Shown here: positions 9,531 through 61,809 of the stretch, piece by piece | How the letters are laid out: each line of letters begins with the position of its first letter | How positions within the stretch are numbered: position 1 is the first letter of the stretch | From: Dendrobates tinctorius | Taxonomy: Eukaryota | Assembly (NCBI RefSeq): GCF_039654945.1 | Contig: NW_027361697.1 | Span: forward strand, 2,604,001 to 2,668,000 | DNA length: 64,000 bases | Direction of reading: 5' to 3' | Notes under the pieces: generated by a model | What the model saw: only the letters and a program-made list of their open reading frames with translations | Database searches by the model: none | Told to the model about the DNA's origin: nothing | Program-made: the position numbers and the translations under genes

Positions 9531-9570
9531 TGTGATTTCCAGCTTGCAGTCAGTTTTAGTGGTAACAATA

Positions 9571-9994
9571 GTTGTCCACTGCTCAGACTTCTTCTCAATC
9601 CCTGTGTTTCTCACTGTAAAATAATAACACTTATACTAACCTTCATTGCGGGCACCATTCCAGCAGTGTCAGCACTGTCTCTCACGGGGATTGCGTGACA
9701 TTGTGTCACGCAATCCCTGAGACCAATCAGTGCTGTCACTCTCCCCATCTTTGGCTAAATCACATTTATCTGGAGAAAACGATAGCCGCTGCTCTCCCAC
9801 TTCCTCTGGATGTATGTGATTCATCCACAGGAAAAGACAGTGAAGCTGGCTATAATTGGCACATGATCCCCTAGAGAGCCAGTGTTGAAATCGTTGGAAT
9901 GGTGTCTACACCGGTTGTGAGTATAAGTGTTATTATTTTACAAGGGAAAAACATAGGGATCGAGAAGGAGTTGTCTGAGTAGTGAACAACCCCT
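9571..9994. mobile_element. T2/Kolobok-like MITE enclosed by an extra perfect 30-bp inverted repeat
   Basis: Inner TIR GTTGTCCACTGCTCAGAC / GTCTGAGTAGTGAACAAC-CCCT|TTAA; outer IR 9534-9563 / 9999-10028. Confidence 0.65.
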
Positions 9995-10028
9995 TTAAAC
10001 CACTAAAACTGACTGCAAGCTGGAAATC

Positions 10029-11181
10029 CGTGGGTAAAATTTCCAAATACCTGAAGGTGCCTTGTTCATCTGTACAAACAATTATATGCAAGTATAAACA
10101 AGATGGGAATGTCCAGCTATCATACCACTCAGGAAGGAAACAGGTTCTGTGTCCCAAAGATGAACGTGCTTTGGTCCGACATGTGCATATCCACCCAAGA
10201 ACAAAAGCAAAAGACCTTGTGAAGATGATGGCAGAAGCTGGTAAGATTGTGTCAATATACACAGTGAAACGAGTACTGTATCAGCATGGGCTGAAAGACC
10301 ACTCTGCCACGAAGAAGCCATCACTACAAAAGAAACATAAAAAATCCAGATTAATGTTTGTAAATGCACACAGAAACAAAGACCTTAATTTTTGGAGACA
10401 TGTCCTGTGGTCTGATGAAACTAAAATTGAACTTTTGGGGGGCATATTGACCACTGTTACATTTGGAGATAAAAGGGAGAAGCTTGGAAGCCTAAGAACA
10501 CCATCCCAACTGTGAAACATGGGAGTGACAGCATCATGTTGTGGGGTTGTTTTGCTTCAGGAGGGACTGGTGCACTTCACAAAATAGATGACATCATGAG
10601 AAAAGAAGATTATGTGGCAATACTGAAGCAACATTTCAAGACATCAGCCAGGGAATTAAAGCTTGGGTGGAAATGGGTCTTCCAAATGGACCCAAAGCAT
10701 ACTGCCAAAATGGTAACAAAGTGGTTTAAGGATAACAAAGTCAATGTTTTGGACTGGCCATCACAAAGCCCTGATCTCATTCCTATTGAAAATTTATGGG
10801 CAAAGCTGAAAACGCCGGTGTGTGCAAGGCAGCCTACAAACCTGGATCAGTTACACCAGTTTTGTCAGGAGGAATGGGCCCAAATTCTGGCCAACTTTTG
10901 TGGAGGGATATCACAAATGTTTGACCCAAGTCATTCAGTTTAAGGGCAATGGTACAAAATACTAATGAAAAGTATGTAAACTTTTGACTTTTCAGTAAGT
11001 AATAAAAATGCCTTAACACATTTTCTTTCTCATTATTCTGGCATTTTGGAAATATTCATAATTATGGTAATCCTAATTGACCTAAAACAGGAAAGGCTTA
11101 TTATGATTTCACGTCAGATATTAAGAAAAACATGGAGATGTGTCTTTTTATATAGTGTATGGAAATTTCTGGTTTCAACTG
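10029..11181 (+). mobile_element. 5'-truncated Sleeping Beauty-like Tc1 transposon (frameshifted transposase ~10029-10965)
   Basis: ORFs 9982-10515 and 10512-10943 follow the SB-type transposase (ISKYLKVPCSSVQTI, FWRHVLWSDETKIEL, KHGSDSIMLWGCF, WPSQSPDLIPIENLW); right TIR ...ATTTCTGGTTTCAACTG|TA. Confidence 0.93.
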
Positions 11182-13279: not shown

Positions 13280-14138
13280 TTATGCTGCTCCAAAACTTAA
13301 AAATGCATTAAAAAAGGAGCGTGGTTTGTCTTAAAAGAAAAAAATATATATATTTATATTGTAGCCATTTTTATCGATGATTTTTCAAGTATGTGGATCC
13401 TTGATATGCGTTGCGAGCTTGCATATTTTTTCCAAAATATCAGGTAATACCTCATGTGTTTTATACATTGTTTTTCATCATTTTATTACACAATTATCTA
13501 TTTTATGCAGGATGTTGCCTGGCCCTTTAGTGTTGGTTGGGTGAATTGGGGTGTCTGTCCTTGTGGGGGTGCACTTATATGGTGCTTGGTACCTCACCTG
13601 AAGTAAAAGTTAAAGGGTCATCAATAAATTGTAAACCAGACACTGATCATCACATGTACCTGTGTGACTTGCATCCTATGCAAGTCTCATCTTTGCATTT
13701 ATAAGACTAGGCAACTGCTGGCTCCATGAATTGGTAATTTTGTGTGTAGTTGTTTCATCAACCTTTATCATGGTGGTCTTTGGCATCCTATAGCACATTG
13801 GTAATCTGACTGGGTGTTTGTAAGGCTGTTTCTTTTTCTGTGAGGTTTTTTGAATTCATGCCCTTCTTCTGTGAGTTGCCAAAACTTAAAAATGCAGAGA
13901 AAAGGGGTCATGATTAGTGTTGAGCTTTCCGATACCGCAAGTATCGGGTATCGGCCCATATTTGCCGTATCGGAATTCCGATACCGAGTACCGATACTTT
14001 TTTCGTATCGGATACCGGAATCGGAAGTCCAAAATGCAATGAGCCACTTTTGTGGCTCTGATTGGCTGCCGAAATGACGTCATCATGATGCGCTGTCTGT
14101 GCGCATCATGATGCGCCGTCAGTTCGGGCCTTCGGGGG

Positions 14139-14492
14139 GGCTGTGCCGACTGTCCGGGGGTCTGTGCCGGCCTGCCGGTGGTCTGTGCAGGCTCCAGGGG
14201 TCTGTGCCGGCCTGCCGGGGGGCTGTGCCGGCCTGCCGGTGGTCTGTGCAGGCTCCGGGGGTCTGTGCCGGCCTGCCGGGGGGGCTGTGCCGGCCTGCCG
14301 GTGGTCTGTGCAGGCTCCGGGGGGCTGTGCCGGCCTGCCGGGGGGCTGTGCCAGCCTGCCGGTGGTCTGTGCAGGCTCCGGTGGTCTGTGCCGGCCTGCC
14401 GGGGGGCTGTGCCAGCCTGCCGGTGGTCTGTGCAGGCTCCGGGGGGCTGTGCCGGCCTGCCGGTGGTCTGTGCAGGCTCCGGGGGTCTGTGC
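14139..14492. repeat. GC-rich minisatellite (left arm); inverted counterpart at ~16274-16552
   Basis: Repeated CTGTGCCGGCCTGCCGG(T/G)GG and CTGTGCAGGCTCCGG units. Confidence 0.9.
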
Positions 14493-14634
14493 AGGCATCG
14501 TCCGATGGGACTACAAGTCCCATCGGGCGATGCCTGCTACCATGACAGTGATTGACACATTAGCCAATGATGGGACAGTAGTAGTCCCATCATCCGGCTA
14601 ATGTGTTGAATGTAAAAAAAAAATAAAAAAAATT

Positions 14635-16130
14635 TACATGCTACATACATGCTACATACATGCTACATACATACAACATGCATACTACATATATAATACA
14701 TGTAACATACATACTACATGCAACATGCATACTACATACATGCTACATACTACATGGATGCTACATACATGCTACATACTACATACATGCTACATACTAC
14801 ATATATACTACATGCTACATACATGTTACATACTACATACATGCTACATACTACATACATAATACATATATACTACATGCATGCAACATACATACAACAT
14901 ATATACTACATGCATACTACATATATACTATATATACTACATGAATTTCCCACGCAGCAATGGCATAAAGTGAGACTAGGGACTTTTTTTTTTTTTAAAG
15001 TGGTGGAGGAATACAGTGCGGAAAGATACCTACCTTCCGTCATTGTATTCCTGGAGCTGGTAGAGAACGGTAGCATCAGCTGATGCTGCTGTTCTCCACG
15101 CAAGATGGACGTGGGACCCTCGTGGACTTCTGCGGATCGGGGTAAGTATATTGGTGTTTTTTTATTTTGATATTTATTCCTCAAGGGGACAATGGCTTCG
15201 GGGATCAAAGTGACAAGTGACGGTGCGTATGTACTCTATGTTATATGTACTGTATGTCTATATGTATGTATTGTATGTAGTATATATGTATGTTGCATGC
15301 ATGTAGTATATATGCAGTATATATGTAGTATGCATGTTGCATGCATGTGGTATGTAGCATGTATGTAGTATGTAGCATATATGTAGCATGTATGTTGCAT
15401 GTATGTAGCATGTAGTGTGTATGTATGTAGCATGTATGTAGTATGTATGTTGCATGTATGTAGCATGTAGTGTGTATGTTGCATGTATGTAGCATGTAGT
15501 ATATATGTAGTATGTATGTTACATGTAGTATATATAGTATATATGTAGTATGCATGTTGCATGCATGTAGTATATATGTTGTATGTATGTTGCATGCATG
15601 TAGTATATATGTATTATGTATGTAGTATGTATGTAGCATGTATGTAGTATGTATGTTGCATGTATGTAGCATGTAGTACAGTATATATGTAGTATGTATG
15701 TTACATGTAGTATATATAGTATATATGTAGTATGCATGTAGTATATATGTTGTATGTATGTTGCATGCATGTACTATATATGTATTATGTATGTAGTATG
15801 TAGCATGTATGTAGTATGTAGCATGTATGTAGCATGTAGTATATATGTAGTATGTATGTTACATGTAGTATATATAGTATATATGTAGTATGCATGTTGC
15901 ATGCATGTAGTATATATGTTGTATGTATGTTGCATGCATGTAGTATATATGTATTATGTATGTAGTATGTATGTAGCATGTATGTAGTATGTAGCATGTA
16001 TGTAGCATGCATGTAGTATGTAGCATGTATGTAGTATGCATGTTGCATGTAGTATGTATGTTACATGTAGTATATATGTAGTATGCATGTTGTATGTATG
16101 TAGCATGTATGTAGCATGTATGTAGCATGT
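14635..16130. repeat. Inverted pair of compound TACA/TGCA microsatellites (14635-14942 and 15241-16130) around a unique spacer
   Basis: (TACA/TGCA/TA) mosaic on the left, its reverse complement on the right. Confidence 0.9.
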
Positions 16131-17035
16131 AAATTTTTTTTTTTTTTTTTTTACATTCAACACATTAGCCGGATGATGGGACTACTACTGTCCCATCATT
16201 GGCTAATGTGTCAATCACTGTCATGGTAGCAGGCATCGCCCGATGGGACTTGTAGTCCCATCGGACGATGCCTGCACAGACCCCCGGAGCCTGCACAGAC
16301 CACCGGCAGGCCGGCACAGCCCCCCGAAGCCTGCACAGACCACCGGCAGGCCGGCACAGCCCCCCGGCAGGCCGGCACAGACCACCGGAGCCTGCACAGA
16401 CCACCGGCAAGCCGGCACAGCCCCCCGGCAGGCCAGCACAGACCCCCGGAGCCTGCACAGACCACCGGCAGGCCGGCACAGCCCCCCCGGCAGGCCGGCA
16501 CAGACCACCGGAGCCTGCACAGACCCCCCGGCAGGCCAGCACAGCCCCCCGAAAGGCCCGTACAGACCCCAGAGAGGCTGTACAAGGCAAAAATAGGGTT
16601 TTTCTTATTCCGATACCGGAAGTCCCATAGACTTGAATGGGACTTCCGGTATCGGAATTGGCGATACCCGATATTTTTTTAGATCGGCCGATACCATCCG
16701 ATACGATACTTTTATGTATCGGACGGTATCGCTCAACACTAGTCATGATTGGTCTTAGAAAAAACAATAATAATTCATACTGTAATCATTTTTCCCATGA
16801 ATATAAAGTCACATTTTGCTCAAAATCTGACATTAACGTGTGACAATTAACACTTTGGTCTCCTGTTGTTTTCTATCATCCATAAAAAGTTGCAATTGCA
16901 CAAAAAGTTTCCATTGATTTGTGACATTTCACAAATTGATCTCAAGTGCTTAAAGAAGCATTGGCATTGTGTACTTACAATTGTTCATTTTGCCTTTCTA
17001 CCCAGTTAATTCTTCTCTTTTTCATTATGTCTATG

Positions 17036-20000
17036 ACATAGTTACATAGTTTTGAAGGCTGAAGGAAGACCTTATGTCCATCTAGTTCAGCCTATTTTTA
17101 GTGCAGCTGTTCTGCATTGTTGATCCTGGGGAAGGCAAAAAACCCACAGAGTAGCAGCCAATTTTCTCCATAGGGAAAAAATGTCCTTCCCCTAAGCTGG
17201 GTCAACCATCTGCCTATAATATTATGTTATTTGTAACCTTCTATACTGTTACTCACAAGAAAAGCATCCATTCCTTTCTTAAATTCATTCAGTGAGTTGG
17301 CCATCACCACTTCCTCAGGAAGAGAATTCCAGAGCCTCACTGCTCTTACCATGAAGAACCCTCTTCTATGCTGGTGCAGAAATTGTCTTTCCTCCAAATG
17401 AAGAGAATGCCCCCTTGTTCTTGTCACAGTCCTTGGTACAAACAGTTCATTGGAGAGATCTCTGTATTGCCTTCTGATATACTTGTACATATATATTAGG
17501 TCTCCCCTAAGTCTTCTCTTTTATAGAGTAAATAGACCTAATTTTGATAACCTTTCTGGGTATTATAGTGAACCAACTCCATTTATCATTTTAGCAGCCC
17601 GCCTTTGAACCCTTTCAAGTTCAGTAATGTCTTTCTTGAGCACCGGCGTCCAAAATTGCTCACAATACTCCAAGTGTGGTCTGACGAGTGATTTGTACAG
17701 AGGGAGAATTATGTTTTCATCTTGTGTCCCCAGACCTCTTCTAATGTATCCCATGACCCTATTTGCTTTGGTGGCAGCTGCCTGACACTGGGCACTCCAA
17801 TTTAGCTTCTTATTGACTAAGATGCCTAAGTCTTTCTCCATGTCTGATTTCCCCAGCAGTTTCCCATTTAGTAAGTAATTGTAGCATCTGTTTCTCCTTC
17901 CCATGTGCATAACCTTACACTTATCTGTTTTAAACCTCATTTGCCATTTTTCAGCCCAATTCTCCAATTTACTCAAATCTGTCTGTAGTTGCAAACTGTC
18001 CTCCTTTGTGTTAACTACCTTACATAGTTTTGTATCATCTGCAAATACTGATATTTTACTGTGTAAGCCATCCACTAGATCATTCATAAATATATTAAAC
18101 AGTAGGGGGCCCAATACAGAACCCTGTGGTACCCCACTAGTAACCCTGGCCCAATCTGAGTATGCGCCATTAATAACCACTCTTTGTTTTCTATCACTAA
18201 GCCAGCTCCCTACCCATCTACACACATTTTCCCCTAGCCCAAGCTTTCTCATCTTACTTAACAATCTTTTATGTGGGACAGTGTCAAATGCTTTAGAGAA
18301 GTCGAGATAAATGACATCCAATGATTCTCCTTGGTCCATTTGAGAGCTTAAATCCTCATGGAAGCTGATCAGGTTAGTTTGACAGGAGCGATCCTTCATA
18401 AATCCATGGAGTTAAACATTTTTTAACATTGAGATATTCCATAATGGTATCCCTTAGAAACCCTTCAAAAATTTTACCCACAACAGATGTTAAGCTTACC
18501 GGCCTATAGTTTCCAGGTTCCCTTTTACACCCCTTTTTGAATATTGGTACCACATTTGCTTGCCGCCAATCAAAAGGAACAGACCCTATTTCTATAGAGT
18601 CTTTAAATATAAGGAATAGAGGCCTGTCTATCACATTACTTCACTACCTTAATACCAGAGGGTGAATGCCATCAGGGCCTGGTGATTTGTCAAGTTTAAT
18701 CTTACTAAGGCGGTTCTGCACTTCTTCCTGGGTTAGGCAGGTAATACTTAATGGGGAGTTTACATTATCACTCTGCGTTTCCCCTGGCAAATCCTTTTCC
18801 TGTGTGAAAACTGTTGAGAAAAAAGTATTTAAAACATTTGCTTTTCCCACATCGCTCTCTATGATTTCACCCTCATTGTTCTTTAAAGGGCCGACACCAT
18901 CAATTTTAATCATTTTACTGTTTAAATAATTAAAGAATAGTTTGGGGTTTGTTTTACTTTCCTTAGCAATGAGTCTCTCAGTTTCCACTTTTGCTAAATG
19001 TATTTGTTTTTTACACATTTTATTTTTTTCCCTATAACTTTTTAATGCTTCTTCATTGCCTTCTTGTTTTAGCTTCCTAAATGCCTTGTTCTTGTTATTT
19101 ATTGCCCTTTTTACATCCTTATTTAGCCACATTGGTGTTCTCCTGTTCCTAGCCCTTTTATTTCTGTACGGTATGGCTAGCTCGCAGTGGGTGTGTAAAA
19201 CTGATTTAAATATTTCCCATTTATTTTCTGTGCTCCTATTTTTGAGGACATTGTCCCAATCAATTCGGCGAAGGTCCTCTCTAAGCTGATCAAACTTTGC
19301 TTTCCTGAAATTCAGCGTTTTCGTAACCCCCTTCCAGGGCACCTTACTGAAGGACAAGTGGAATTGTATTACATTGTGGTCACTGTTCCCTAGGTGCCCA
19401 TCGACTCGTACTTCTGTTATTCTATCTGGCCTGTTGCTTAAAATTAAGTCCAGAAGGGCTGTCCCTCTAGTTGGATCCTGCACAAGTTGTGACAGATAAT
19501 TATCCTTGGTCACTGACAGAAATTGGTTTCCTTTCTGAGATACGCAGGTTTCAGTTTCCCAGTCTATGTCGGGGTAGTTGAACTCCCCCATAATAATCAC
19601 CTCATTGGGATTTGCTGCTTTGTCTTTTTGTTTCAATAATACATTTTCAGTGGTTTCTGTTATATTTGGTGGCTTATAACAAACCGCTATGAGGATTTTA
19701 TTACTTTTCCCTCCTTGTATCTCCACCCAAAGAGACTCCACCTCTTCATTTCCCTCTTGTATATCTTCTCTTAGTGTGGGCTTTAAAGTGGACTTTATAT
19801 AGAGACAGACTCCACCCCCTTTCCTTTTTTTACGATCCCTCCTAAACAAATCATATCCTTGCAAGTTAGCCGGCCAGTCATAGCTGTCGTCTAACCATGT
19901 CTCAGTTATTCCTACTATGTCGTATTTTTCTTCATACATTACCAACTACAGATCTTCACTCTTATTGGTCAGGCTTCTTGCGTTGGTCAGCATGCAGGAA

Positions 20001-20560
20001 AGAAGTTTTGCTTCCTTTTTCTTAGCTTCCTTCTGAGTACCCTGTCTTGGGTCCTCTGTAGCACATCTAGTATCCTTGATTAGTCTGTCCTTCTGCTGCA
20101 TGTTCTTGTCTGCTGTTTTTCCTCCCATCCCCTCTTCTTCTAGTTTAAAGCCCTCCTGATGAGTGTGGCAAATCTTCTGGCGAATGTGTGTTTCCCAGGT
20201 TTTGTGAGGTCTATCCCATCTCTTGCGAGAAGTCCATCATAGAGGTAATTCATGCCATGGTCCAAGAATCCAAATCCTGAGCTGTGCCATTTTCATTCTC
20301 CAGCATGAGGGCTTCATATTGGTTGCTAAGCTGTGTGGGTGGTGATGACCACTTGATCCGTTTGCTTCTTTTCGTCACATGGCTCCAGTTTTCAGCCTCT
20401 GCATGTGCTCTGAAGCTTTTCTCACTTTCCGTTTCCTGAATGGTTGCTTCTGCTTCATCCAAGAAGTTCTCATGTTCTTTAATTACCTTCAATGTTGCTA
20501 TTCTTTTTTCCAGTCCCTGCACCTTTTCCTCTAAGAGGGCAACAAGTTTGCACTTCATCA
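17036..20560 (-). mobile_element. CR1-clade LINE, near full length, inactivated
   Basis: 3' tail (AACTATGT)2 at 17036-17051; ORF2 with APE endonuclease and RT; ORF1 remnant upstream. Confidence 0.96.
17227..20010 (-). pseudogene. CR1 ORF2 (APE endonuclease + reverse transcriptase) with several stops and a frameshift
   Basis: NARSLTNK, IVGITETW, LGNSDHN (APE); NYRPVSLTS, YLDFSKAFD, GVPQGSVLGP, FADD (RT); C-terminal TRGH..VRLWNSLP; stops at ~19946, ~18644, ~17563; frameshift ~18410. Confidence 0.95.
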
Positions 20561-20561
20561 C
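20140..20561 (-). pseudogene. CR1 ORF1 remnant (zinc-finger/leucine-zipper region plus esterase C-terminus, internally deleted)
   Basis: KCKLVALLEEKVQGLEKRIATL coiled coil, followed after a short gap by YDGLLARDGIDLTKPGKHTFARRFATLIRRALN*. Confidence 0.7.
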
Positions 20562-20785
20562 GTGATTAATTCTTCTAAGCTCTATTTAGAAACAGGAAGT
20601 CTCTTTGCCCTGCATGAGTTATCATTAGAACTACAATTCTACATCACTGCAAAATCCCTGACTCCTGTGCTATCTACTGTATACAAAAGTGTCAACTTTC
20701 ATTGTAGCCCTATCTGTAATGATAATGAGGCCGCTGAAAAGTTTTCTGTATAGAGCAGAAAATTTGTGCTTAGTATAAATGCTAA

Positions 20786-26084: not shown

Positions 26085-26689
26085 TTAGAGCCAATATCCG
26101 ACTTTATGCCAGTGCAGTGAGCTTTAGATCTATCCTAGTGTAGGACATTGCTTAGCTTCATGTTGCCAAAGTGTGTAAGAAGTTGCTACTGAATGGTCTT
26201 CATAATCCCCAAATAAGAATGTAACTGAGAGCCTTTGGGACATTATTTATCAGTGAAATTGATGTAAATAAGCAGGAACATAGAATTTCTACAAGTTCAT
26301 AGATGCCCTGATCCAGGACGCCACCGTCCATCTCATCAGGAGCATGCCAAGATATTGGCGAGAGGATATATAGGCATGTGGGTGCAATACACATTAGTGT
26401 GTCACATTGAGTTACCGTGATGAAATTAATGTAAACTGGATCCACCTGTGATTTCAGTTTTTTACTTTGATTTTCTGGGTGATTTGGAATACAGCCCTCA
26501 AATGGTTGAAAACTTTGGTTTACATTGACCATTGATACAACATTTTTTTTGTTCTCATTGAATGACATTCTTATGATCAGTAAAGATTTCATTTATCCAA
26601 TGTGTGATTTATGTGTCCCCTTAATTTTTTTAATCAGTGTGTTTTGACACTTTATATTTCAGAACTTGTGCAGAAATATAATTCTACTA

Positions 26690-26974
26690 CAGTGGGGAAA
26701 ATAAACATTTGAGACACTGTCAATTTTGCAAGTTTTCCCACTTAGAAATAATTGAGAGTAGGGATGAGCGAACCTGCTTGCTGATGCTTGGAGATCACTT
26801 GAGTATCTGGGTGTCTGCATGTGATCGTAACTCGGCGAGCATTGGGTGGTGCTCAGTTTAAAACTCAAAGTCCCACATGTTTGGTACCTGTTGCACATCC
26901 ACAAAGCATGTGGAGATTGCCTGCGCATCACTGTAATACCATAACTGTAAAGCCTCTGTCGTCGGGTGTCCCGA
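26690..26974. mobile_element. Tc1 TIR fragment (from 26690) interrupted by a hAT-like MITE end (from 26759)
   Basis: TA|CAGTGGGGAAAATAAACATTTG; then TAGGGATGAGCGAAC at 26759. Confidence 0.6.
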
Positions 26975-29190
26975 TGTAACAGGCCAGAATATACCCCATG
27001 CCAGACTATGCCCAGGGCTGAAGTGACCTAAGCCAGAGTATACTCCGGCCAAAGTATACCCTGGGTTATACTCTGACCTAGGCCACATTATACCCCCTCC
27101 AGAATATACCCCTCGGGGGGTGTAAAATAGCCTGGGCCAGACTATGCCCGGGGTTAAAGTGGCGTAGTATACTCCTGGTATATTCTGGCCTAGGCCAAAG
27201 TATACCCTGGGTATATACTAGCTTAGGCTAAACTATGCCCCTCCAAGCCCAAATATTGCTGTTTTTCCTGCCGTAGTTGTTCTACAGAATGACTACAAAG
27301 ACAGAAAGTAAGGCTACACTTGCAGTATATGTTGGAGGAGTTGCATTGCACTGACAATAGATGGCTCTGTTCCATCAGTGCATAGTTAATGTTATGTTGA
27401 ATTGTAACTTACCATGTATGTTTCTCTCTGCTCTCTATGATATGCACTCTTTTCTCCAGTGTGAGTTCCTCTTCTATCCTGATAAGATACGAGTTTGCAA
27501 CACCCCCAACACCAAAATAAGTTTTCCAATTTTGACAACCATGGAAGACCAACTGTATAACCAGCTATTGAGATTCTACACTGCAACAGAACAAAAGTAC
27601 CCCCAGTGGATCTGCGATCTTCCTCCAGAGAAACGTGTAAGTGCCAAGTCCCAGTTTAGATAAACATCTAAGCCATATCGAGCAGACGGAGGGATTCTTT
27701 ACCATGGGGAATAGGAGGTTCTCACTAAAAGTCGACTGCCAAATATCCTAAAGGCCTGTCATGACAATCTAATTTCTGGTGGCCATTTTGGCAGAGATAA
27801 AACATTACACAAAATCTCTGACTGTTATTACTGGAAGGAAATGAAGAACAACATTCTTAAACACGTCAAAGCCTGTCAAAAATGTTTTGTCATAAATCCC
27901 AAAACCAGCAAGGAGGCTCCACCACTCAACAGTATGCCAGTGACCGGAAAAGTAAGGAGCTTAGTCGGTATTGGTATGATCGGTCCTCTTCAGGAAACAT
28001 CAAATGGCAACAAATATATAGTCGCTGCCAATGATCATTTCTCCAAGTGAACAGAAGCAACAGCTGTTCCAGACAAGAGTAACAAGTCAGTAGAAAATTT
28101 TTTGTACACCGCTCCTTGCTGCCTTGGCTGTATGGATTCTCTGATTAGCGACCTAGGAACAGAGTTTGTGAGCTCGTTCATTGACAACCTGATGGAACAT
28201 TTTCAAACAGACCACCTTATTTCATCTGCCTACCACCCACAAACAAATGGCCAGCGGGAACGTGACAGTCGAACACTCAAAGAATCTCTTTGTAAGCTTG
28301 TCAAAGACCAAGGAAATAACTGGGACCAGATCATCCCTGGTGTTTTGCTTGCCTATCACACATCAGTGCTTGCCTTATCCAAATGCACTCCATTTGAGGT
28401 CAACCTCGATTCCTCAGAAAATGACACCATGAACCTCATGTCCCTTCCAGATGATGCTAATCATGATGTGCTAAATACACTGACAATCATTCGTAAAAAG
28501 CTCCACTCAACCATCAGTACCAACATCCAGTCTTCTCAGGAACACCAGAAATGTGCATTTGATCACCGACACAATAGCAACAATGAAATGACTGCTGGCA
28601 CCATCATTTATATGAAGAATCAACGTCATATTCATTGCCTGGGTTCAAAGATGGAACCACACTGGGTTGGACCCTACTTAGTTGTGGAATCCTTGACCAA
28701 GGGATGAGTAAAACTTAAGAACAATAAGACTGGCAAGAGATACTGAGCAACACCTATCATGCCATCATCCTTAAGATTTACCAAGATGATGAAACTTCTG
28801 TATCACCCCAGTCCCCTAATGATTGTTCAATTGTCCAAGTGACTCTGTCACACAGAAACGCAAGCAAATCAAGACTTTGAACCCACTACCAAGTTCAGGA
28901 AGGAAGTATCTTTCCACCACACTCTGCCTTAAGCTTGGTAGTGTTGTGTACTATGGAGCCAAAAGAGACATTGGACAACCATGGTGTACATATAAAACCA
29001 AAGGTGATGGGAACTGCTACTTCCCGGCTATCAGCTACACCTTGACAGGAACAGAGGACAATCACTCTCTTCTCAGAGATAATGTCATATGCCACATGAA
29101 AACTGCCTGGACAAAAAAACTACAGGACTATTTGAATAAAAAATAGTGTGAGCCCACCTGCCAATACAAGGCGACCTCATACAGATGGTG
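26975..29190 (+). mobile_element. Ginger1-type DNA transposon (3' end not found)
   Basis: Begins TGTAACAGGCC with repeated GCCA(G/A)A(A/G/C)TAT(A/G)CCC subterminal motifs (26980-27240); integrase without gag/RT/RNase H; C-terminal OTU. Confidence 0.8.
27541..29146 (+). pseudogene. Ginger1/GIN-like integrase-transposase with GPY motif and OTU cysteine-protease domain (multiple stops, frameshift)
   Basis: MEDQLY..KYP..KPY..LY N-terminus; HHCC zinc finger CHDNLISGGHFG..CQKC; core VGI(D>G)MIGP, ISDLG, SAYHPQTNGQRER; WVGPY; KGDGNCYFPAISYTLTG..H..LR (OTU). Confidence 0.88.
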
Positions 29191-29409
29191 CCTAAAACTG
29201 AAGAGACATTCCTCTTTCTTTGAGACTTAGGATAGGTAGGTTCCAGCTTTGTAAGATATTTGCAGGGATTTCTGGTAAGGTGACATATGTACATTTACTA
29301 TTTACAGGCATTAATGTTAGTGATATACTATAGGGAATAAATTGCAATGCTCAGTAGTTCCAAGTCTGTATAATTTCAGTAGGCTGCCTGTTGAGTTCTT
29401 TCATACAGT

Positions 29410-30055
29410 AAAATATTCAGGATTGAGAGTCCTCAGTAGTTGATACCTTTTAATGGCTAACTGAAAAGATGGTAATACATTGCAAGCTTTCGAGACTACT
29501 CAGGTCTCTTCATCAGGCTAGACTAATACAAAATCTGAAGTCACATATTTATGCACAATACAGCCTAGAAAAAATGCAATAGATAAGACAAGTGACGTGA
29601 AGCAGAACTATCAATATGGGAGAGGGAGAAACATAAATATAAACATTGGACCAGTTCATAGATAAGGAGTCTGGATGTTTTATGGTCCTCTGATTGGGGT
29701 CTAGTTCTGTGTTGCCCCGCAAGGTTTTAAAAGGAAATTCCTTAATTGATGTAAAAAGACATAAATCCATGCGACACATTCATTCCAGCACTGAGAGTGT
29801 CAAAGTTCGTCATAAATTTGTACTCCCAAACTCGTCTCTCTCTCTGAGATGTGAAGTTACCTTTCAATACCAGTAATTTCATATCCATGCTGCTGTGATC
29901 AGGGATACAGAAATGTTTTGCCACAGGTAGATCCATTCTTTTTTCTCTTATTGTGTGACGATGAGAATTCATCCTTGTTCTAAGCTTTTGCCCTGTCTCC
30001 CCCACATACAGACCCCCAGTTGGACATTTAGTACAAATAATTAAATAATGTACCG
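29410..30055 (-). mobile_element. Penelope-like retroelement 3' fragment (GIY-YIG endonuclease end plus pLTR)
   Basis: YLIICTKCPTGGLYVGETGQKLRTRMNSH..VAKHF..R..E..F.TL..GMN (ORF 29742-30005 and codons upstream), followed by a hammerhead motif. Confidence 0.9.
29481..29520 (-). ncRNA. Minimal type I hammerhead ribozyme (Penelope-associated)
   Basis: Minus strand UAGC-CUGAUGA-A-GAGAC[CUGAGUA]GUCUC-GAAA-GC-UU-GCA: intact core, 5-bp stem II, palindromic AAGCUU stem III. Confidence 0.8.
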
Positions 30056-30759
30056 TTCATACAGTAAGGCACTTTAACGTGATCTCTCTTATCCTTATTA
30101 TCTTCCCTAGGGAATGCGATACTCTGTATAATGCACAAGCTGTAACACTGATCTTAATACTGAATTAATCCTTTTATTGAAGAGGAAAGATTATAAGTGA
30201 TTATTCGAGAAGAAATGTTCTGCACATTGTATTGCTAATGCTAATTACTATAATAACATGTGCTATGTTTATATCTGCATTTATATGCATGGCAGGTCGG
30301 CTTGCTGGCTCATTTAATATACAGTACATATTGCTGCAGTGGTTAAGTGACTTACCATATGTCCCAAATGTGACATGCTATAGAATGGAAGTAAAATAAT
30401 TTTTCTGTGTGATGCCTTATTCTGTCCTATGTTCTTGTTTGTAACTCTTCATCAAATTTATAATTTCCTGTTACAGTGACCACCAAGAGTCATGTCAAAA
30501 ATATGCTAAATTAATAATGGGCTAGCTTTTTTGAAGAAATTTGACTTTAAAGGGAATGCAAAACCAAAGAAATGAGCCGGAGCATATGTTGGTATTAAGT
30601 GCAATGTGCAAGATCTCGTTCACACTGTGGCCATTTCACAGACAAATTCCAAGATAAAAACAAAATGAGCATATACCCTGTAGTAAGTAAATAAATGAAT
30701 AGTAATAACACATGTAAATAACAAAGGTGTGGCACTGAATCATTTCTCACTTACAAGCC

Positions 30760-31264
30760 ATGAGTCGGGCTAGTCGAGGCGTCCAATGTCAATAGTCAGG
30801 TGGGTGCAGCATAAACAGAGGGAAGAAACAGTATTGAGTAAGGTAATGGTCCAAGATCAAAATACCAGGAGGATAGCAGATCATAGTAAAGGGGTTAAAC
30901 AGACAGATGGTCAGAACAAGGTCCAATATTCAGGCAATGAAAGATCATCAACCAAATTACTAGGCACAGAGAAAACCAATCACAATTAGCTGAAGCTATG
31001 TCTGGCAAAGGTCTTGGACTAACAGCCCAGCTAAGAAACTGGGCAATCACCTGGGACAATGAACACCTGGAGACAGCCAGCACCTCCCAGTCTCAGATTG
31101 GACTGCTGAGCTGTCAATCAAGACACTGACAGCTCAGCATGCCCCTGCGCCAGACTGGACACTGAACTGTAAAACAAAGTACTAACAACTTCAGTACGCC
31201 CCTTTATCAGATTGGATGGCTGACCCATCAGTAACTGCATTCCAGACACAGTGGAATTGTGACA
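30760..31264 (-). mobile_element. Partial LTR (Gypsy-like)
   Basis: Ends ...ATTGTGACA (TGTCAC start on the minus strand); internal repeats (GATTGGA, CTGTCA/TGACAG); other end uncertain. Confidence 0.4.
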
Positions 31265-31437
31265 ATAGGGTACTAACTTAATACTATTTTAATCAAAAAG
31301 CATAAAAGCCAGACGACTGCGTCAAGGTATACCCAGTCTGGATGGTCCTATCCTGTCTTTAGTATTAAAACCTTACCTTATGTCAGCCGCACTCAATGTG
31401 AATACGGGGAGACCAGGACAGGGGACCAACTTTTTAA

Positions 31438-31890
31438 AAGGAATGTCCAGGCAAAAAATAAAGTTCTCCAGGAGCTTGGATCTGTAAAAAAAATAAACTA
31501 TTTGATACTCCCCTACCAGCATACATCTGGATCCAGCACCTACCACTACACGGTCCGCTCTGTCGCAGGAAGAAGACACAACACCCTTCCACCAGCCACA
31601 GGATTGCCATGGCCTATGATTGGCTGCAGCAGTCATCACTTTTTGTTATTACAGTAGGTACTGTTTAATGTCCCCAGAGCACTACAGCCATAATCCTGCC
31701 CTATTTATAGTCAAAGACAACAGCAGTTCTGCAGCTGGTGGGACATTGACGTCTCCCCTTCCTGTGTAAGAAAAACCGCAAAGTGGTCTGTACTGCATCT
31801 AGGTGGGTACCAGTAGATGAGTATCATTTAATTCGTAATTGTTTACAGCACCAAGCATCAGGAGAACTTTCCTTTTTGCTGGGACAAAAT
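31438..31890. mobile_element. Degenerate T2/Kolobok-like MITE
   Basis: TTAA|AAGGAATGTCCAGGCAAAAAA..AAAGTTCTCC inverted against GGAGAACTTT..TTTTTGCTGGGACA. Confidence 0.5.
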
Positions 31891-32342
31891 CTAACAAACC
31901 AGTAGCAACTTCACAATTTTGGATACTGTTTGAGTTTAATCTATTACTCAGGGGCTCAATAAGTTCACACAATATAGCATAGTTATTTTGTAACCCACAC
32001 AGTCCAATCTACCCAGAACTAAAAATGCATACCATCCCTAAACTATGCCTGCTCCTCCAGAAAAATTTATACCAATGAGCCCATTCTAACCTTTTCCTTT
32101 TACATATTCTTATAAAAGTGAGGTGACTAGCTTTTGAAAAAAACACAGTTTTTTATATTGTGTCAGGAGATGTTTATGGTAAATGTATTCATCTTTGACA
32201 CACAGTGGTTCTTATGTGTGGTTGCATCATGTTGAGGGTTTTAATTACATGTCACAAGAAGTACTGAAATTGTATCAGGAGAATGCATCATTAATGTAAA
32301 TTAAATAAAGGTAAGAGTGGACGCAATTGATGAGCGAACATA

Positions 32343-33504
32343 CCGTATATACTCGAGTATAAGAAGACCCGAGTATAAGCCGAGGCACCTAATTTTTCCT
32401 CGAAAAACTGGGAAAACTTATTGACTAGAGTATAAGCCAGGTATGCATTGTCCCCTCATCTCCATCCTGGTATGCACAGCCTTCTCATCCCCATCTTGGT
32501 ATGCACAGCCTTCTCATCCCCATCTTGGTATGCATGGTTCCTCATCCCCATCATGGTGTGCATAGTTCCTCATCCCCATCTTGGTGTGCATGGTTCCTCA
32601 TCCCTATCCTGGTATGCATGGTCTCCTCATCCCTATACTGGTATGCATGGCTCCTCATCCCTATCCTTGTATGCATGTCCCTTTATCCCTATCCTTGTAT
32701 GCATGGTCCCTTCATCCCTATCCTTGTATGCATAGCCCCCTCATCCCTATCCTGGTATGCATGGTCCTCTCATCCCTATCCTTGCATGCATGGTCCCCTC
32801 ATCCCCATTCTGGTATGCATGGTTCCTCATCCCTATCCTGGTATGCATGGCTCCCATCAAAAAAGAATAATAACATTATAAACCATCCTACTTACCTTTC
32901 CTGCTCTGCCTCACAGCATCTGCGTCTTTTTACGGTGCCAGCAGTTGCTTTTTGCTTGTAATTAGCACATAGCAGGGACATCATGCGCTGCTTACAAGCA
33001 TAGCACAACAGCCGGAATACTCACTTCTCTCCACGCAGGGACTACAGTATGTTCGTGGAGGGCAGTGAGTATTCATTGCTATTAAGTAGCGCGCACAGTG
33101 TCACCTGCAGCCACTGTGCGGTCTTTTGTCCCTGCTACTTACGGGAATGAATATTCACCTCTCTCCACACCTATGAGAGTGGAAAGAGGTGAATATTCAT
33201 TTCTCTTAAGTAGCGGGCACCCATGACGGCCCGGCCACTGCTGGAAGTCGGCCACTGCGGCTGACACTGTGCATGCTATTACAGAGAAATTAATATTTAC
33301 TGCCAGCACAGTGAATATTGATTTCTCTTTAGCAGCGGGCACAGGGATTAGCCGCACAGCCGTCTCCTGCCTCTGTGACCCGCTGCTCCACTGCTGTCAC
33401 TTCCCCTCCATCCTCTGGGACAATGACTTGAATGTGAGCCCAGGGGGGCATTTTCAGCTCAAAAAAAGTGCTGAATAACTCGGCTTATACTCGAGTATAT
33501 ACGG
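32343..33504. mobile_element. Non-autonomous Tc1/mariner-pogo (Tigger-like) element
   Basis: Perfect TIR CCGTATATACTCGAGTATAAG with TA TSD on both sides. Confidence 0.9.
32440..32858. repeat. ~29-30 bp minisatellite inside the Tigger-like element
   Basis: Unit CCTCATCCC(C/T)ATCCTGGTATGCATGG(T/C), ~14 copies. Confidence 0.9.
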
Positions 33505-39632: not shown

Positions 39633-42425
39633 TAAGATGTGGAAACAAAAAATCAGCTAATACCCAACTGTTCACCTCTCTGGCCACCTCTGGTGCTCGC
39701 TATCCCCCCTACGGTCCTTGTCTCCTATTTTTACCATCACTGCATACTAAAACCCAGGGCCTTTTCCCTTTTCCCTAGGCTGGGACTTCTAGTGATGTTG
39801 TGACCGTACAACCTGCATGCACAGAGACGTTCTGGTCCTTGTCACAGTCGAAATGCTCGCCCAAATGTGCGCATTGTAAAGTCATGGCTCACGATGTTAC
39901 AGTCTTATAGTACCTCAGTGCATTTATTGAACGCACAAGATTTAAATGAATAAAAATAAAAAAAAAGTAAAGCTATCTAAGGCTCTGTTCAAAATATGTG
40001 TGTATTACACACTTGCCGAACTCAAGTTTCGCCTACTTGGCTTCATCTGAGACATACCTTGCTGGAATTACAAGGCTTAACTACTGTATTGCAGTCTCGA
40101 TTGGCTTTTCCTTCATCCTTAGAATAGTGGAAGGTGAGACACAACTATTACCAAAGATCTGATGTTTGTGTCTACAAGCATCGTCTTAAGAGAGATATTG
40201 GTGTCACTGTACAATCTGTGGACATCTTCACATAAGTTTCTTCATCTGGGAAAAGTGTATGAAGAAACAAAATGAAAAATTTAAAAATTGCCTGGTCATG
40301 AAGCAATTAAAAACCCATTGAAAAAAGAATGCTTATTATTCCAAAATATTATTGGTCAAATTATTTTTTAAAAATCCTGGAGGTGTCTGTATCCTTTAAG
40401 TAAAAAAAAAAAAAAAAGGCCTAATTTTAACCATAAAACTGCTGAAAATCTGTATTTCTTTAAACAAGTCTCCAGTTTGTCTTATGCTTGCTTGATTGGT
40501 AAGCTAAATTATTAAGAAATTGTTATACTGTGCCCTGCTTTTACAAGTATTCCTCCAGCGAAGATAGCACTGTATCCCATTCTACAGTATCTATATATGT
40601 CTAATTGCATAATCAATATGCGTTACATTCCACCAATTAGCAGTTCGATGAATATTTTGCTGCTCTTTCCTTCTAAAAACAATTGATGTGCAATTTTATG
40701 TGATTAAATTTGACATGGATTTGTAAATGGATAGACTGATGAATCTGCTTTTCGGAATTATTGGAGTTATTTGCATATGTGTTAATTAATAAAAAAGTAT
40801 CAGACATAATTGCATATAGTGAAACGGATTGTAATATTCTAAGTCATTAAGATATTCACTATGATGTATTTTGTTGAGGGGGTATCACTGGAGGTTGTAC
40901 AAAGAGAATGACTATAAACTTTGCATAAAATGTGCAAGTACATTGCATAGTCACTAGATTTTAAACTTTTATCAAGTTAAATTGATTTTTTGCATAGTTA
41001 ATATAGATGAGTGAATGTGCTTGGTGATACTCGGATAGCACTTAAGTATCTGGGTGCGCTCGGATGTGCTTGGCACTGCTCAAGCATTAGCCAGTGCTTG
41101 AATTTCAAACTCGAATCCCCGCCCTGCATATTTGGCGCCTGTTACACAGCCAATAAGCATGAGGGGAATGCCTGTGAGTCATTGGATTCAATGACTCACC
41201 CATAGAGTATTACGTTCTTTGCGGTACATTTCGATGTTAAAAAACAATCCAAAAAAGCATTAAAGAAATTTTCTGGATTCAATTACTCACCAATATAGTA
41301 TTACGTGCTTTGCGGTACATTTTGGTGTTATATAACATTCCAACAAAGCATTGAAAAAAATTTCTGGTTTCAATTGCTCACCCTTACAGTATTACATGCT
41401 TTCTGTTAGTGTTCAGTGGTATATAACCCTCCAAAAAAGAGTTGAAATGTATTTCTGGATTCAGTTATTCATCTATAGAGTATTAGGAGTTCTCTGTTAC
41501 ATTTTGGTGGTATACACCACTCCAAAAAAGTGTTGAAAACTATTTCTGGATTAAATTAGTCATCCATAGAGTTTTACAAGCTTCCTTTAACTTTTGATGG
41601 TATATACAGTAACACTCCAAGAAAACATTGAAAAGTAAAATATTTCTGGTTTCAATTATTCACCCATAGAGTATTATGTGCTTTCTGGTACATTTCGGTG
41701 ATTTATAACACTCCAAAAAAGAGTTTAAAATTCTTTCTGTATTCAATTAATCATCCATAGAGTATTAAGTGCTTTCTGATAAATTTTGGTAGTATATAAC
41801 ACTACAAAAAAGCGCTGAAAAATATTTCTGTGTGCAATTAGTCATCCATAGAGTATTATGTACTTTGTGTTTGAATTTCAGTGGTATATAACACTACAAA
41901 AAAGCGTTGAAAAATATTTCTGGATTCAATTACATTAGTCATCCATAGAGTATTATGCGCTTTGTGTTAAATTTCGGTGGTATATAACACTACAAAAAAG
42001 CATTCAGATTTTTTTCTGGTTCAATTAGTCATCCATAAAGTATTACATGCTTTCTGTTAAATTTCAGGGGTATATAACAGTCCAAAGAAGCATTCAAAAA
42101 TATTTATAAATTCAATTAGTCATCCATAGATTATTTCATACTTTCTGTTAAATTTTGGTGGTATATAACACTACAAAAAAGCTATCAATTTTTTTTCTGG
42201 ATTGAATTTGTCATCCATACAGTATTATATGCTTTGTGTTATATTACAATATTATCTAAAACTTCGAAAAAAAAATTTCCTGGATTAATTAGTCATCTAT
42301 AAAGTTTAACACAGTTGTTTTAACATCATGGTAGTATATAAAACAAAAAAAAAAGTTCCAACATTTTTCCTCAATTTAATTAGTCTTCCATGCAGGATAA
42401 TGCTGTTTTTGTAACATTACGGTGG

Positions 42426-56211: not shown

Positions 56212-57778
56212 AATCTCCCTTATCCTCTAGTCACTTTTGTCACAGCTGTGCCATCGAGCCTGTGACATAGCGCTCAGATATCAGTGGGCCTCACACAATC
56301 CAAAAGTGTCCAGCGTCCACAAGTGTCTGCAGAAATTCAAAATCTCCCTTATCCTCTAGTCACTTTGGTCACAGCTGTGCCATCGAGCCTGTCACATAGC
56401 GCTCAGATATTCATTGGGCCTCACACAATCCAAAAGTGTCCAGTGTCCAAAAGTGTGTGCAGAGATTCAAAATCTCCCTTATCCTCTAGTCACTTTGGTC
56501 ACAGCTGTGCCATCGAGCCTGTCACATAGCGCTCAGATATTCATTGGGCCTCACACAATCCAAAAGTGTCCAGTGTCCAAAAGTGTGTGCAGAGATTCAA
56601 AATCTCCCTTATCCTCTAGTCACTTTGGTCACAGCTGTGCCATCGAGCCTGTCACATAGCGCTCAGATATTCATTGGGCCTCACACAATCCAAAAGTGTC
56701 CAGTGTCCAAAAGTGTGTGCAGAGATTCAAAATCTCCCTTATCCTCTAGTCACTTTGGTCACAGCTCTGCCATCGAGCCTGTCACATAGCGCTCAGATAT
56801 TCATTGGGCCTCACACAATCCAAAAGTGTCCAGTGTCCAAAAGTGTGTGCAGAGATTCAAAATCTCCCTTATCCTCTAGTCACTTTGGTCACAGCTGTGC
56901 CATCGAGCCTGTCACATTGCGCTCAGATATTCATTGGGCCTCACACAATCCAAAAGTGTCCAGTGTCCAAAAGTGTGTGCAGAGATTCAAAATCTCCCTT
57001 ATCCTCTAGTCACTTTGGTCACAGCTCTGCCATCGAGCCTGTCACATAGCGCTCAGATATTCATTGGGCCTCACACAATCCAAAAGTGTCCAGTGTCCAA
57101 AAGTGTGTGCAGAGATTCAAAATCTCCCTTATCCTCTAGTCACTTTGGTCACAGCTGTGCCATCGAGCTTGTCACATAGCGCTCAGATATTCATTGGGCC
57201 TCACACAATCCAAAAGTGTCCAGTGTCCAAAACTGTGTGCAGAGATTCAAAATCTCCCTTATCCTCTAGTCACTTTGGTCACAGCTGTGCCATCGAGCCT
57301 GTCACATTGCGCTCAGATATTCATTGGGCCTCACACAATCCAAAAGTGTCCAGTGTCCAAAAGTGTGTGCAGAGATTCAAAATCTCCCTTATCCTCTAGT
57401 CACTTTGGTCACAGCTCTGCCATCGAGCCTGTCACATAGCGCTCAGATATTCATTGGGCCTCACACAATCCAAAAGTGTCCAGTGTCCAAAAGTGTGTGC
57501 AGAGATTCAAAATCTCCCTTATCCTCTAGTCACTTTGGTCACAGCTGTGCCATCGAGCCTGTCACATAGCGCTCAGATATTCATTGGGCCTCACACAATC
57601 CAAAAGTGTCCAGTGTCCAAAAGTGTGTGCAGAGATTCAAAATCTCCCTTATCCTCTAGTCACTTTGGTCACAGCTGTGCCATCGAGCCTGTGACATAGC
57701 GCTCAGATATCAGTGGGCCTCACACAATCCAAAAGTGTCCAGTGTCCACAAGTGTCTGCAGAAATTCAAAATCTCCCC
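56212..57778. repeat. 130-bp tandem array, 12 units
   Basis: AATCTCCCTTATCCTCTAGTCACTT at 56212, 56341, then every 130 bp to 57641; nearly identical units. Confidence 0.98.
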
Positions 57779-57853
57779 TGTCCTATAGACACCTTGTACC
57801 TTGTTTTACATTACTATATAGTTTGTTGGATTTTGTCTACATTTCTACCAAAA

Positions 57854-60800: not shown

Positions 60801-61390
60801 AATTACAAAACATCATGCCACAGGAGAACCTTGACCTAATATTGGCTAATAAACAAGCAACTCTGGTAAATCGGTTGCTTGAGGCATTCCCAGCACACAG
60901 CAGCGGTGATGGTTCTCACACGAGCCGTACAGGCTGGGGGCAGCTTGGCAGAGGTGTTCGTGGTGCACACAGCAGAAGTGGCGTTGGAGACAGGGGTTTC
61001 ATGACAATGTTGTGGACTGATTTTTCAAGTACCGCTCACACAACTGGTAATACTGCATCGATGGAAAGTGATAGGAGACAGCAGTTGTCAACTATGGTTA
61101 CAAACTACTTTTCCTCCCATATCGATGTTCTCCCACACAGGTCATTCCCCTTTGACTATTGGGCCGCTAAACTGGACACCTGGCCTGAATTGGCACAATA
61201 TGCCTTACAGGAGCTCGCTTGCCCAGCTGCAAGTGTGCTATCGGAAAGAGTCTTCAGTGCAGCTGGATCAATCCTGACAGAAAAAAGGACCCGTCTGTCA
61301 ACCCAAAATGTGGATGATCTAACCTTCATTAAAATGAACCACGCATGGGTTTCCAAGGATTTTGTCCCACCTTCCTCTGATGACACATAG
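57854..61390 (+). pseudogene. hAT transposase with BED zinc finger (ZBED-like), ~1178 codons, single in-frame TAG at 60077-60079
   Basis: BED SAVWHFF..CKKC..LRHLTSMH; catalytic TTDAW, VSDNGRN, CLAH, ATRWNST, SVLSERVFS; C-terminal dimerisation region; ORFs 57713-60079 and 60083-61390 share one frame. Confidence 0.95.
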
Positions 61391-61809
61391 GGTGACAGAA
61401 AAATGGCTTGCTTTGGTCCACCTCTTCCTGGGACTTGACCTATTTCACCTTTTGCATCAGCTGAATGTCCAACATCAACATATGCCACTTTCTAAAACTC
61501 CCTAACTGTGCTGCCTCCCCCCCCCATGGCCGGGGTCACCACCTAGCGCACGACACCGTGCGAGTGCCGTTGCCCTGGACAGGTGGGTAGGCCGACTCTT
61601 GGGCGCGGGCACTGGTACAGGGTCCTTCATAGTGCAATCAAGTGTCTCTGACGGTGGTGGTGCACACCCGCCGTCAGACACACCGCCGTACTATGAGGGG
61701 CCCAGTGCCAGTACCGACGCCCACGAGTGGGCCCCCCTTGCTTGGGCAGGGCCCAAGCTTTTGCAATATTTACCTCTCCCTGCTCCTCCGCTGTGTAGTC
61801 TGGGCCGTC

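Follow-up and report, generated by a model that had tools for sequence, protein, structure and literature searches.

The stretch of DNA analysed here (64,000 nucleotides of Dendrobates tinctorius contig NW_027361697.1, hereafter the window) carries a single copy of a Ginger1 family at 26975 to about 29150 on the forward strand, comprising its left terminus and the greater part of the transposase gene. We conclude with high confidence that it is a decayed, 3'-truncated copy of an autonomous and intronless Ginger1 DNA transposon, belonging to an OTU-bearing subfamily similar to Ginger1-1_BF and residing in a frog genome. The features are as follows.

26758..26974 (+): unrelated host repeat, the insertion site of the element and not element sequence; second copy at 41006-41174, 72% identical
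26971..26974 (+): CCGA at the left flank, probably the target site; it differs by one base from each of the Ginger1 targets CCGG and CCGT
26975..27245 (+): left terminus and an array of direct and inverted repeats of ~15 bp, probably the left terminal inverted repeat with putative transposase-binding sites
27246..27540 (+): 5' non-coding leader, without RT/RNase H match
27541..27714 (+): N-terminal region of YPYY type with the transposase start codon, interrupted by stops at 27661 and 27712
27715..27900 (+): HHCC zinc-binding domain (Pfam PF17921), ligands intact
27955..28401 (+): DDE catalytic core, with Gly in place of the first Asp at 27973; second Asp (28150) and Glu (28258) kept, stop at 28048
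28402..28823 (+): helical linker and GPY/SH3-like C-terminal domain; GPY at 28669-28677, stop at 28705, frameshift near 28735
28856..29149 (+): OTU-like cysteine protease domain, N-terminal part without the His half, read in a different frame; GDGNC at 29003-29017

At the left end, CCGA is directly followed by TGTAACAGG (26971-26983), the first base of the element being 26975. The terminus TGTAACAG follows the TGTNR pattern (TGTAA at 26975), and its first 8 bases are identical to those of a complete element found elsewhere (L011, see below). A 15-mer unit is matched 13 times in 26975-27260 (up to 4 mismatches, both strands), against an expectation of 0.1 per 286 nt derived from the rest of the window. 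The TGT start with structured subterminal repeats, noticed in a first-pass annotation made from the letters alone, is thereby confirmed.

The integrase frame (27541-28737) matches the Pfam families Integrase_H2C2 (E about 2e-16 to 2.7e-17) and rve (E 1.4e-5, under the Pfam curated cut-off). The copy is colinear with intact 640-aa relatives from Met1 and shares their start Met, as expected for the stand-alone, Gypsy-like integrase that had been proposed. Other parts of that description need correction. HHCC and GPY are indeed intact, and the second Asp and the Glu are retained (the latter in an NGQRERD motif), but the first catalytic Asp is a Gly, which had been missed. Similarly, the YP of the reported YP..Y..Y N-terminus is present, but the Tyr five residues after the start of the motif (Y25) is a Cys. 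In all seven intact relatives Y20-P21 and Y25 are invariant (YPYY being compared with Ginger1 by motif description) and the DDE triad is intact.

Four in-frame stops occur within 399 codons (codons 41, 58, 170 and 389), and further damage consists of a 10-codon deletion near 28400 and two frameshifts. These lesions are read from the alignment with the intact relative P0002, which falls into three pieces (residues 1-409 at 27541-28737, 408-437 at 28734-28823 and 468-562 at 28856-29140) and shows in addition that there is no intron and that the final 78 of 640 residues are gone, among them the catalytic His of the OTU domain. Pfam alone detects this domain weakly (E 0.04); a profile built from the relatives finds its N-terminal half at E 1e-19, and the OTU region of P0002 has 62/95 identical residues with the copy (tblastn). 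The OTU motif reported in the first-pass annotation is thus real, though only half of the domain is left. Today the copy is dead and without coding function.

Using the read-through protein as query, 79 proteins were found at E <=1e-20 among 2415 candidates. The best two, P0002 and P0003 (68% and 67% identical over 96% of the query), are intact, 640 aa long and contain H2C2, rve and OTU domains. Named relatives come from Oopsacas, Nucella, Haliotis, lobster, Neogobius, Lerista and Sphaeramia (besides the lobster, we take these to be a sponge, two molluscs, a goby, a skink and a cardinalfish). An Atlas search with P0005 gave a top cluster of 71 members with rve and OTU, and tblastn against a plasmid collection returned distant integrases only.

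A FastTree phylogeny of 221 integrase cores (rows below 150 aligned columns excluded, or below 100 for loci; midpoint root) places the copy within a 119-member clade (support 0.949), apart from the RT-bearing sequences. The clade comprises none of the 59 RT-bearing sequences, against 31/31 with OTU, 8/8 with Ulp1 and 6/6 elements with verified ends. An earlier tree of 191 rows agreed; its nearest RT-bearing neighbours include three Tanacetum proteins. Both trees were made without named Repbase Ginger1 entries, named Hydra elements and GIN1/GIN2, so that the phylogeny proposed for the integrase yields an RT-free clade and the link to Ginger1-1_BF is made by motif and a count by eye. The motif GQRE[RK]D occurs in 77 proteins, 27 of them with OTU and none with RT/RNase H; many of those without OTU are fragments or chimeric gene models.

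These observations make it very improbable that the copy derives from a Gypsy LTR retrotransposon that lost its gag/RT part by deletion and kept the integrase end. Its integrase does resemble those of Gypsy, with Ty3 and foamy virus as best solved matches, a TGT start is common to LTRs, and the right end is missing. Nonetheless, full-length relatives share its own start Met, none of the 77 proteins with its core motif contains RT or RNase H while 27 contain OTU, and its clade includes none of the 59 RT-bearing sequences. Gypsy/Ty3 elements have gag, protease, RT and RNase H upstream as well as LTRs; in the window we found no match to LTR-type RT/RNase H profiles and no LTR-like direct repeats flanking the gene, in keeping with what had been noted before. 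The RT at 17566-18411 was rejected as a part of the Ginger1 element, being a LINE-type ORF on the other strand and 9 kb off.

That the copy represents a GIN-like gene domesticated by the host, or a pseudogene of one, is equally improbable. GIN2-type genes are present in frogs (PMC2836005), and GIN1 clusters appear among the Atlas look-alikes (score 0.84; a lead only). However, the copy bears a transposon terminus with repeats, is intronless, is disabled at many sites and has decayed almost neutrally, whereas GIN genes carry 6-8 introns according to the accessible text of PMC2836005. More generally, GIN1/GIN2 and Imagin share the superfamily origin (PMC2836005, PMC12863088, as far as accessible) but are single-copy, multi-exon host genes without transposon ends.

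A scan of the GTDB genome collection gave 19 loci. Six of these have TGT...ACA inverted ends and target duplications, of CCGG in L006, L008, L011 and L016 and of CCGT in L013 and L017; terminal inverted repeats (40-270 bp in Ginger1) are thus seen in 6/19 related loci, all from other branches. All six verified elements contain introns and five have a Ulp1 match, while none has OTU, so they validate the clade and not the window's own subfamily. That the verified ends belong to these intron-containing branches weighs somewhat against the Ginger1 assignment, as do the left flank CCGA, which is not a canonical target, and the right inverted repeat and target duplication, neither of which was seen for this family.

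The six intron-bearing elements (L006, L008, L011, L013, L016 and L017) are located in GTDB bacterial bins, some on contigs of more than 1 Mb, and other loci among L002-L018 are probably of the same kind. Probably the Ginger1 loci in GTDB bins are animal host DNA misbinned as bacterial. A separate observation concerns a set of gene models (P0081-P0084, P0086, P0087, P0098, P0099, P0101, P0104 and P0115) in which one near-identical GQRE-type integrase is joined to many host domains that have nothing to do with each other (ion channels, Ig, Patched, transporters and LRR). Either a young family has inserted in many introns and was mis-annotated, or these are real cases of exon capture.

The first-pass annotation had proposed to look for a right terminal inverted repeat, but within the window none exists: no right end inverse to the left-terminal TGTAACAGGCC was found, hence no inverted-repeat pair is seen for this copy. 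Similarity to relatives stops at 29140-29180, repeat-array units are absent from 29100-33000, and the six frames downstream of 29130 hold no remnant of the second half of OTU. The right end would have been lost through deletion or rearrangement.

Several candidates were discarded. The best inverted match (14/20, final 9 bases exact) is at 30475, with flank GTGA and no repeat array, and it also lies beyond a Penelope-like fragment. A 10-base match at 41136-41146 falls inside the second copy of the host repeat and is attributed to chance. Scanning with an 11-mer was uninformative (30 matches against 18.6 expected), and the single match of an Rfam scan of 26500-31000 (E 0.2) is a hairpin of the repeat array and was rejected.

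Ginger1 was defined by this very architecture, with a transposase of 500-800 aa, TGTNR ends, inverted repeats of 40-270 bp and CCGG/CCGT duplications, and a C-terminal OTU or Ulp1 domain was part of the original 2010 definition (both in the accessible text of PMC2836005). None of the Ginger1 features that were tested in the copy and its relatives failed. An amphibian Ginger1 with an OTU domain, as first suggested, is supported by the intact relatives with 67–68% identity, the RT-free clade with its six verified elements, the link to Ginger1-1_BF and a neighbouring hAT (see below).

Of the 21 cores of Repbase Ginger1 families that the supplement of PMC10045372 aligns, just that of the lancelet family Ginger1-1_BF contains GQRE (75/110 identities with the window core, counted by eye). 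Like the window copy it is intronless (PMC2836005, accessible text). It was reported without a C-terminal domain, possibly because of an internal deletion (same source and extent), whereas the window subfamily carries OTU; further differences are that its host is a lancelet and that the copy in the frog is dead. The families Ginger1-1/2/3/11_HM, Ginger1-1_AC and Ginger1-1/2_AP have the same order of YPYY, H2C2, DDE, GPY and OTU and the same TGTNR ends, but differ in the core motif around the catalytic Glu and in having 1-4 introns against none in the window, as far as their published descriptions are accessible. Ginger2/TDD is described in the accessible literature as being without GPY/F and YPYY and as having an AT-rich target (RTATAY), in contrast to the GPY, YP and GC-rich flank of the copy.

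Within vertebrates, two Repbase families (Ginger1-1_DR and Ginger1-2_DR) are without GQRE and look divergent in the stretches that are visible. Their suffix DR presumably denotes zebrafish; apart from these two, and as we take the suffixes to read, none of the 21 cores is amphibian. Repbase held 23 autonomous Ginger1 entries in 2022. Protein fossils of Ginger1 are reported from Xenopus tropicalis, coelacanth, turtle and alligator, with 'many in frog' (PMC9004415, accessible text, which gives them no subfamily, age, OTU domain or termini). Ginger, without division into subgroups, is tabulated for zebrafish in the available part of PMC4746887 and found among salamander transcripts in that of PMC9998948. 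An anuran repeat survey (PMC12822217) does not mention Ginger, nor does the accessible text on the strawberry poison frog (PMC6278860). In the literature searched (mainly non-subscription, Repbase and Dfam lying outside the search) we found no dedicated description of an amphibian Ginger1 family.

Given the vertebrate relics and the two DR families, the earlier remark that Ginger1 is mainly known from invertebrates overstated the novelty. Both the OTU fusion and the presence of Ginger1 in vertebrates are already known, and since element type, OTU domain and frog occurrence are in print, the copy itself is an ordinary transposon fossil. The subfamily, in turn, is probably uncatalogued apart from its lancelet relative among the 21 Repbase cores.

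At 76/395 positions the copy departs from the residue most common among its 23 closest relatives, and a simulation of neutral decay reproduces these changes together with the stops at 8-10% nucleotide change. After insertion into the older repeat it would have decayed without selection, by about this amount. With amphibian rates of 1-3 per billion sites per year, a decay of 8-10% corresponds to some 30-100 million years. Of the mobile family first proposed, the Ginger1 family stands, while the copy seen is a dead and truncated relic.

Changes at otherwise invariant columns give an impression of the constraint on each branch, since pure decay would strike conserved and variable columns equally often. 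For the window copy 20/136 invariant against 77/337 variable columns are changed (p=0.06, a weak trend of constraint), for Lerista 7/41 against 32/139 (p=0.5, at low power) and for the goby 5/88 against 24/142 (p=0.014, i.e. some constraint). The intact-looking proteins P0002, P0003, P0009 and P0015 show changes in 2-5% of the invariant against 20-33% of the variable columns (p below 2e-5).

How the element came into the frog lineage can be approached with an IQ-TREE tree of 20 sequences (the other 59 of the 79 rows being left out). Nine of these form one star-like clade with 100/100 support: the window, Lerista edwardsae P0049, Neogobius melanostomus P0023 and six further records. The branch points of frog, skink and goby are 0.01-0.04 substitutions per site apart, on terminal branches of 0.15-0.21. 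At the protein level 108/155 residues are identical between window and Lerista and 172/228 between window and goby, with decay on both sides, against 323/478 between the intact subfamily members P0002 and P0015. There is little constraint on the terminal branches leading to the window copy and to Lerista, where 15% and 17% of the invariant columns differ, against 23% of the variable ones. This implies that the active ancestors were close, and, with intact members of the subfamily differing by a third, it favours horizontal transfer.

Judging from these protein comparisons, we consider it somewhat probable that the frog lineage acquired the family horizontally, the frog, skink and goby lineages each being invaded separately by near-identical active elements. 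At the rates used above, a decay of 8-10% also dates the copy long after amphibians and amniotes had split. Ginger is reported to transfer at a high rate per copy among animals (PMC12400950, accessible text). Against transfer it can be argued that the protein fragments span 129-256 columns and the internal nodes lack resolution, that gene models are chimeric or prone to frameshifts, that the goby branch is constrained and the window shows its weak trend, and that the goby record may be a contaminant. As to the skink, the Lerista model is located on a 22-Mb contig with its integrase pieces joined to an unrelated N-terminus, which suggests a real insertion in a lizard gene. The first-pass suggestion of horizontal acquisition is thus favoured at the protein level, short of proof.

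Less probable, though a serious competitor, is vertical inheritance of the subfamily in vertebrates (or chordates) with late activity in frogs. The nearest catalogued family comes from lancelet, and further relatives occur in a second fish, Sphaeramia. This reading would have to span about 350-430 million years, and it requires near-zero protein change in the active lineages while intact relatives diverge by 30-50%; moreover, the Sphaeramia sequence falls outside the nine-member clade. In its favour, Ginger1 relics are known from coelacanth, frog, turtle and alligator, one of them predating amniotes (PMC9004415, accessible text). Returning to horizontal transfer, we estimate that the full scenario is slightly favoured: an uncatalogued OTU lineage similar to Ginger1-1_BF would have jumped into at least three vertebrate classes (frog, skink and bony fish) over about the past 100 million years, and would have been mobile in the ancestors of poison frogs.

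The relatives allow some proposals about the mechanism of the ancestor. It would have encoded a single 640-aa protein with integrase and OTU. The integrase part may have bound to the repeat arrays of the TGT...ACA ends, cleaved the DNA at the terminal CA (by comparison with the relatives and with integrase chemistry) and inserted these ends, with a stagger of 4 bases, into a target similar to CCGG/CCGT, in the way of Ty3 and foamy-virus integrases. Its substrate would be DNA excised from the chromosome and not reverse-transcribed DNA.

The C-terminal OTU domain of the ancestor was quite probably an active cysteine isopeptidase, judging by sequence conservation: Asp, Cys and His are kept in all 27 domains of relatives that span them (33 domain hits). 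Such a deubiquitinase would most likely act at the transposition site by removing ubiquitin, either from the transposase itself or from factors of chromatin or repair, and would thereby protect the transposase or tune repair. A repair role for the protease was also proposed by Bao et al., who called the excision mechanism unknown (PMC2836005, accessible text). The best solved structure matches are Ty3 and foamy-virus integrases and, for OTU, OTUD1/OTUD3. A fold model of P0002 (mean pLDDT 74, pTM 0.39) has two folded parts with a disordered linker at 426-473; it best matches foamy-virus and Ty3 intasomes, all listed matches are integrases, and as a prediction it adds nothing beyond domain identity.

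The interest of the locus lies mainly in the subfamily, which is present in frogs, a skink and a goby. There are signs that it spread horizontally and that it was active much later than the Paleozoic relics on record. For the lancelet family, the missing C-terminal domain that was left open in 2010 is suggested to be OTU. Finally, the intact proteins P0002, P0003 and P0015, with their conserved catalytic residues, make both Ginger1 excision and the role of OTU testable; in the available text of PMC2836005 these are unknown or hypothetical.

The surroundings of the copy are rich in transposons (Tc1, LINE, hAT and Penelope-like), and among the 15 long ORFs scanned (71 listed) in the window no host gene was identified. 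Downstream of the broken Ginger1 element a Penelope-like fragment lies on the minus strand (29417-30060), with a GIY-YIG ORF at 29742-30056 (Pfam E 4e-4). At 29488-29516 it contains what we take to be a hammerhead-like core motif, a lead only; this segment has no Rfam match and its predicted fold is not a hammerhead. In 30440-30520, a pyrimidine-rich run that ends in ACAG at 30476 resembles a splice acceptor.

Remnants of a Tc1/Sleeping Beauty-type transposase (9534-10940, + strand) and of an endonuclease-RT LINE (17566-20585, - strand) are found further upstream. A nearly intact hAT transposase with one stop (57695-61387) lies within 56212-64000, flanked by two young tandem arrays, one with 12.2 copies of a 130-bp unit and one with 17.6 copies of a 124-bp unit, each 97% matched. 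Over 60080-61387 it shares 90% identity with a protein of Dendrobates tinctorius, followed by Ranitomeya imitator proteins, and all named ones among the 24 matches are frogs except Protopolystoma xenopodis (a frog parasite, 36%), which agrees with the amphibian genome initially presumed. By itself the hAT points to a frog and probably a dendrobatid host, though indirectly, as transposons may themselves move between species. At 14130-16680, two inverted repeat arms of ~760 bp (93% identical) with 61-bp units surround a low-complexity TATG tract, and probably represent a non-autonomous element.
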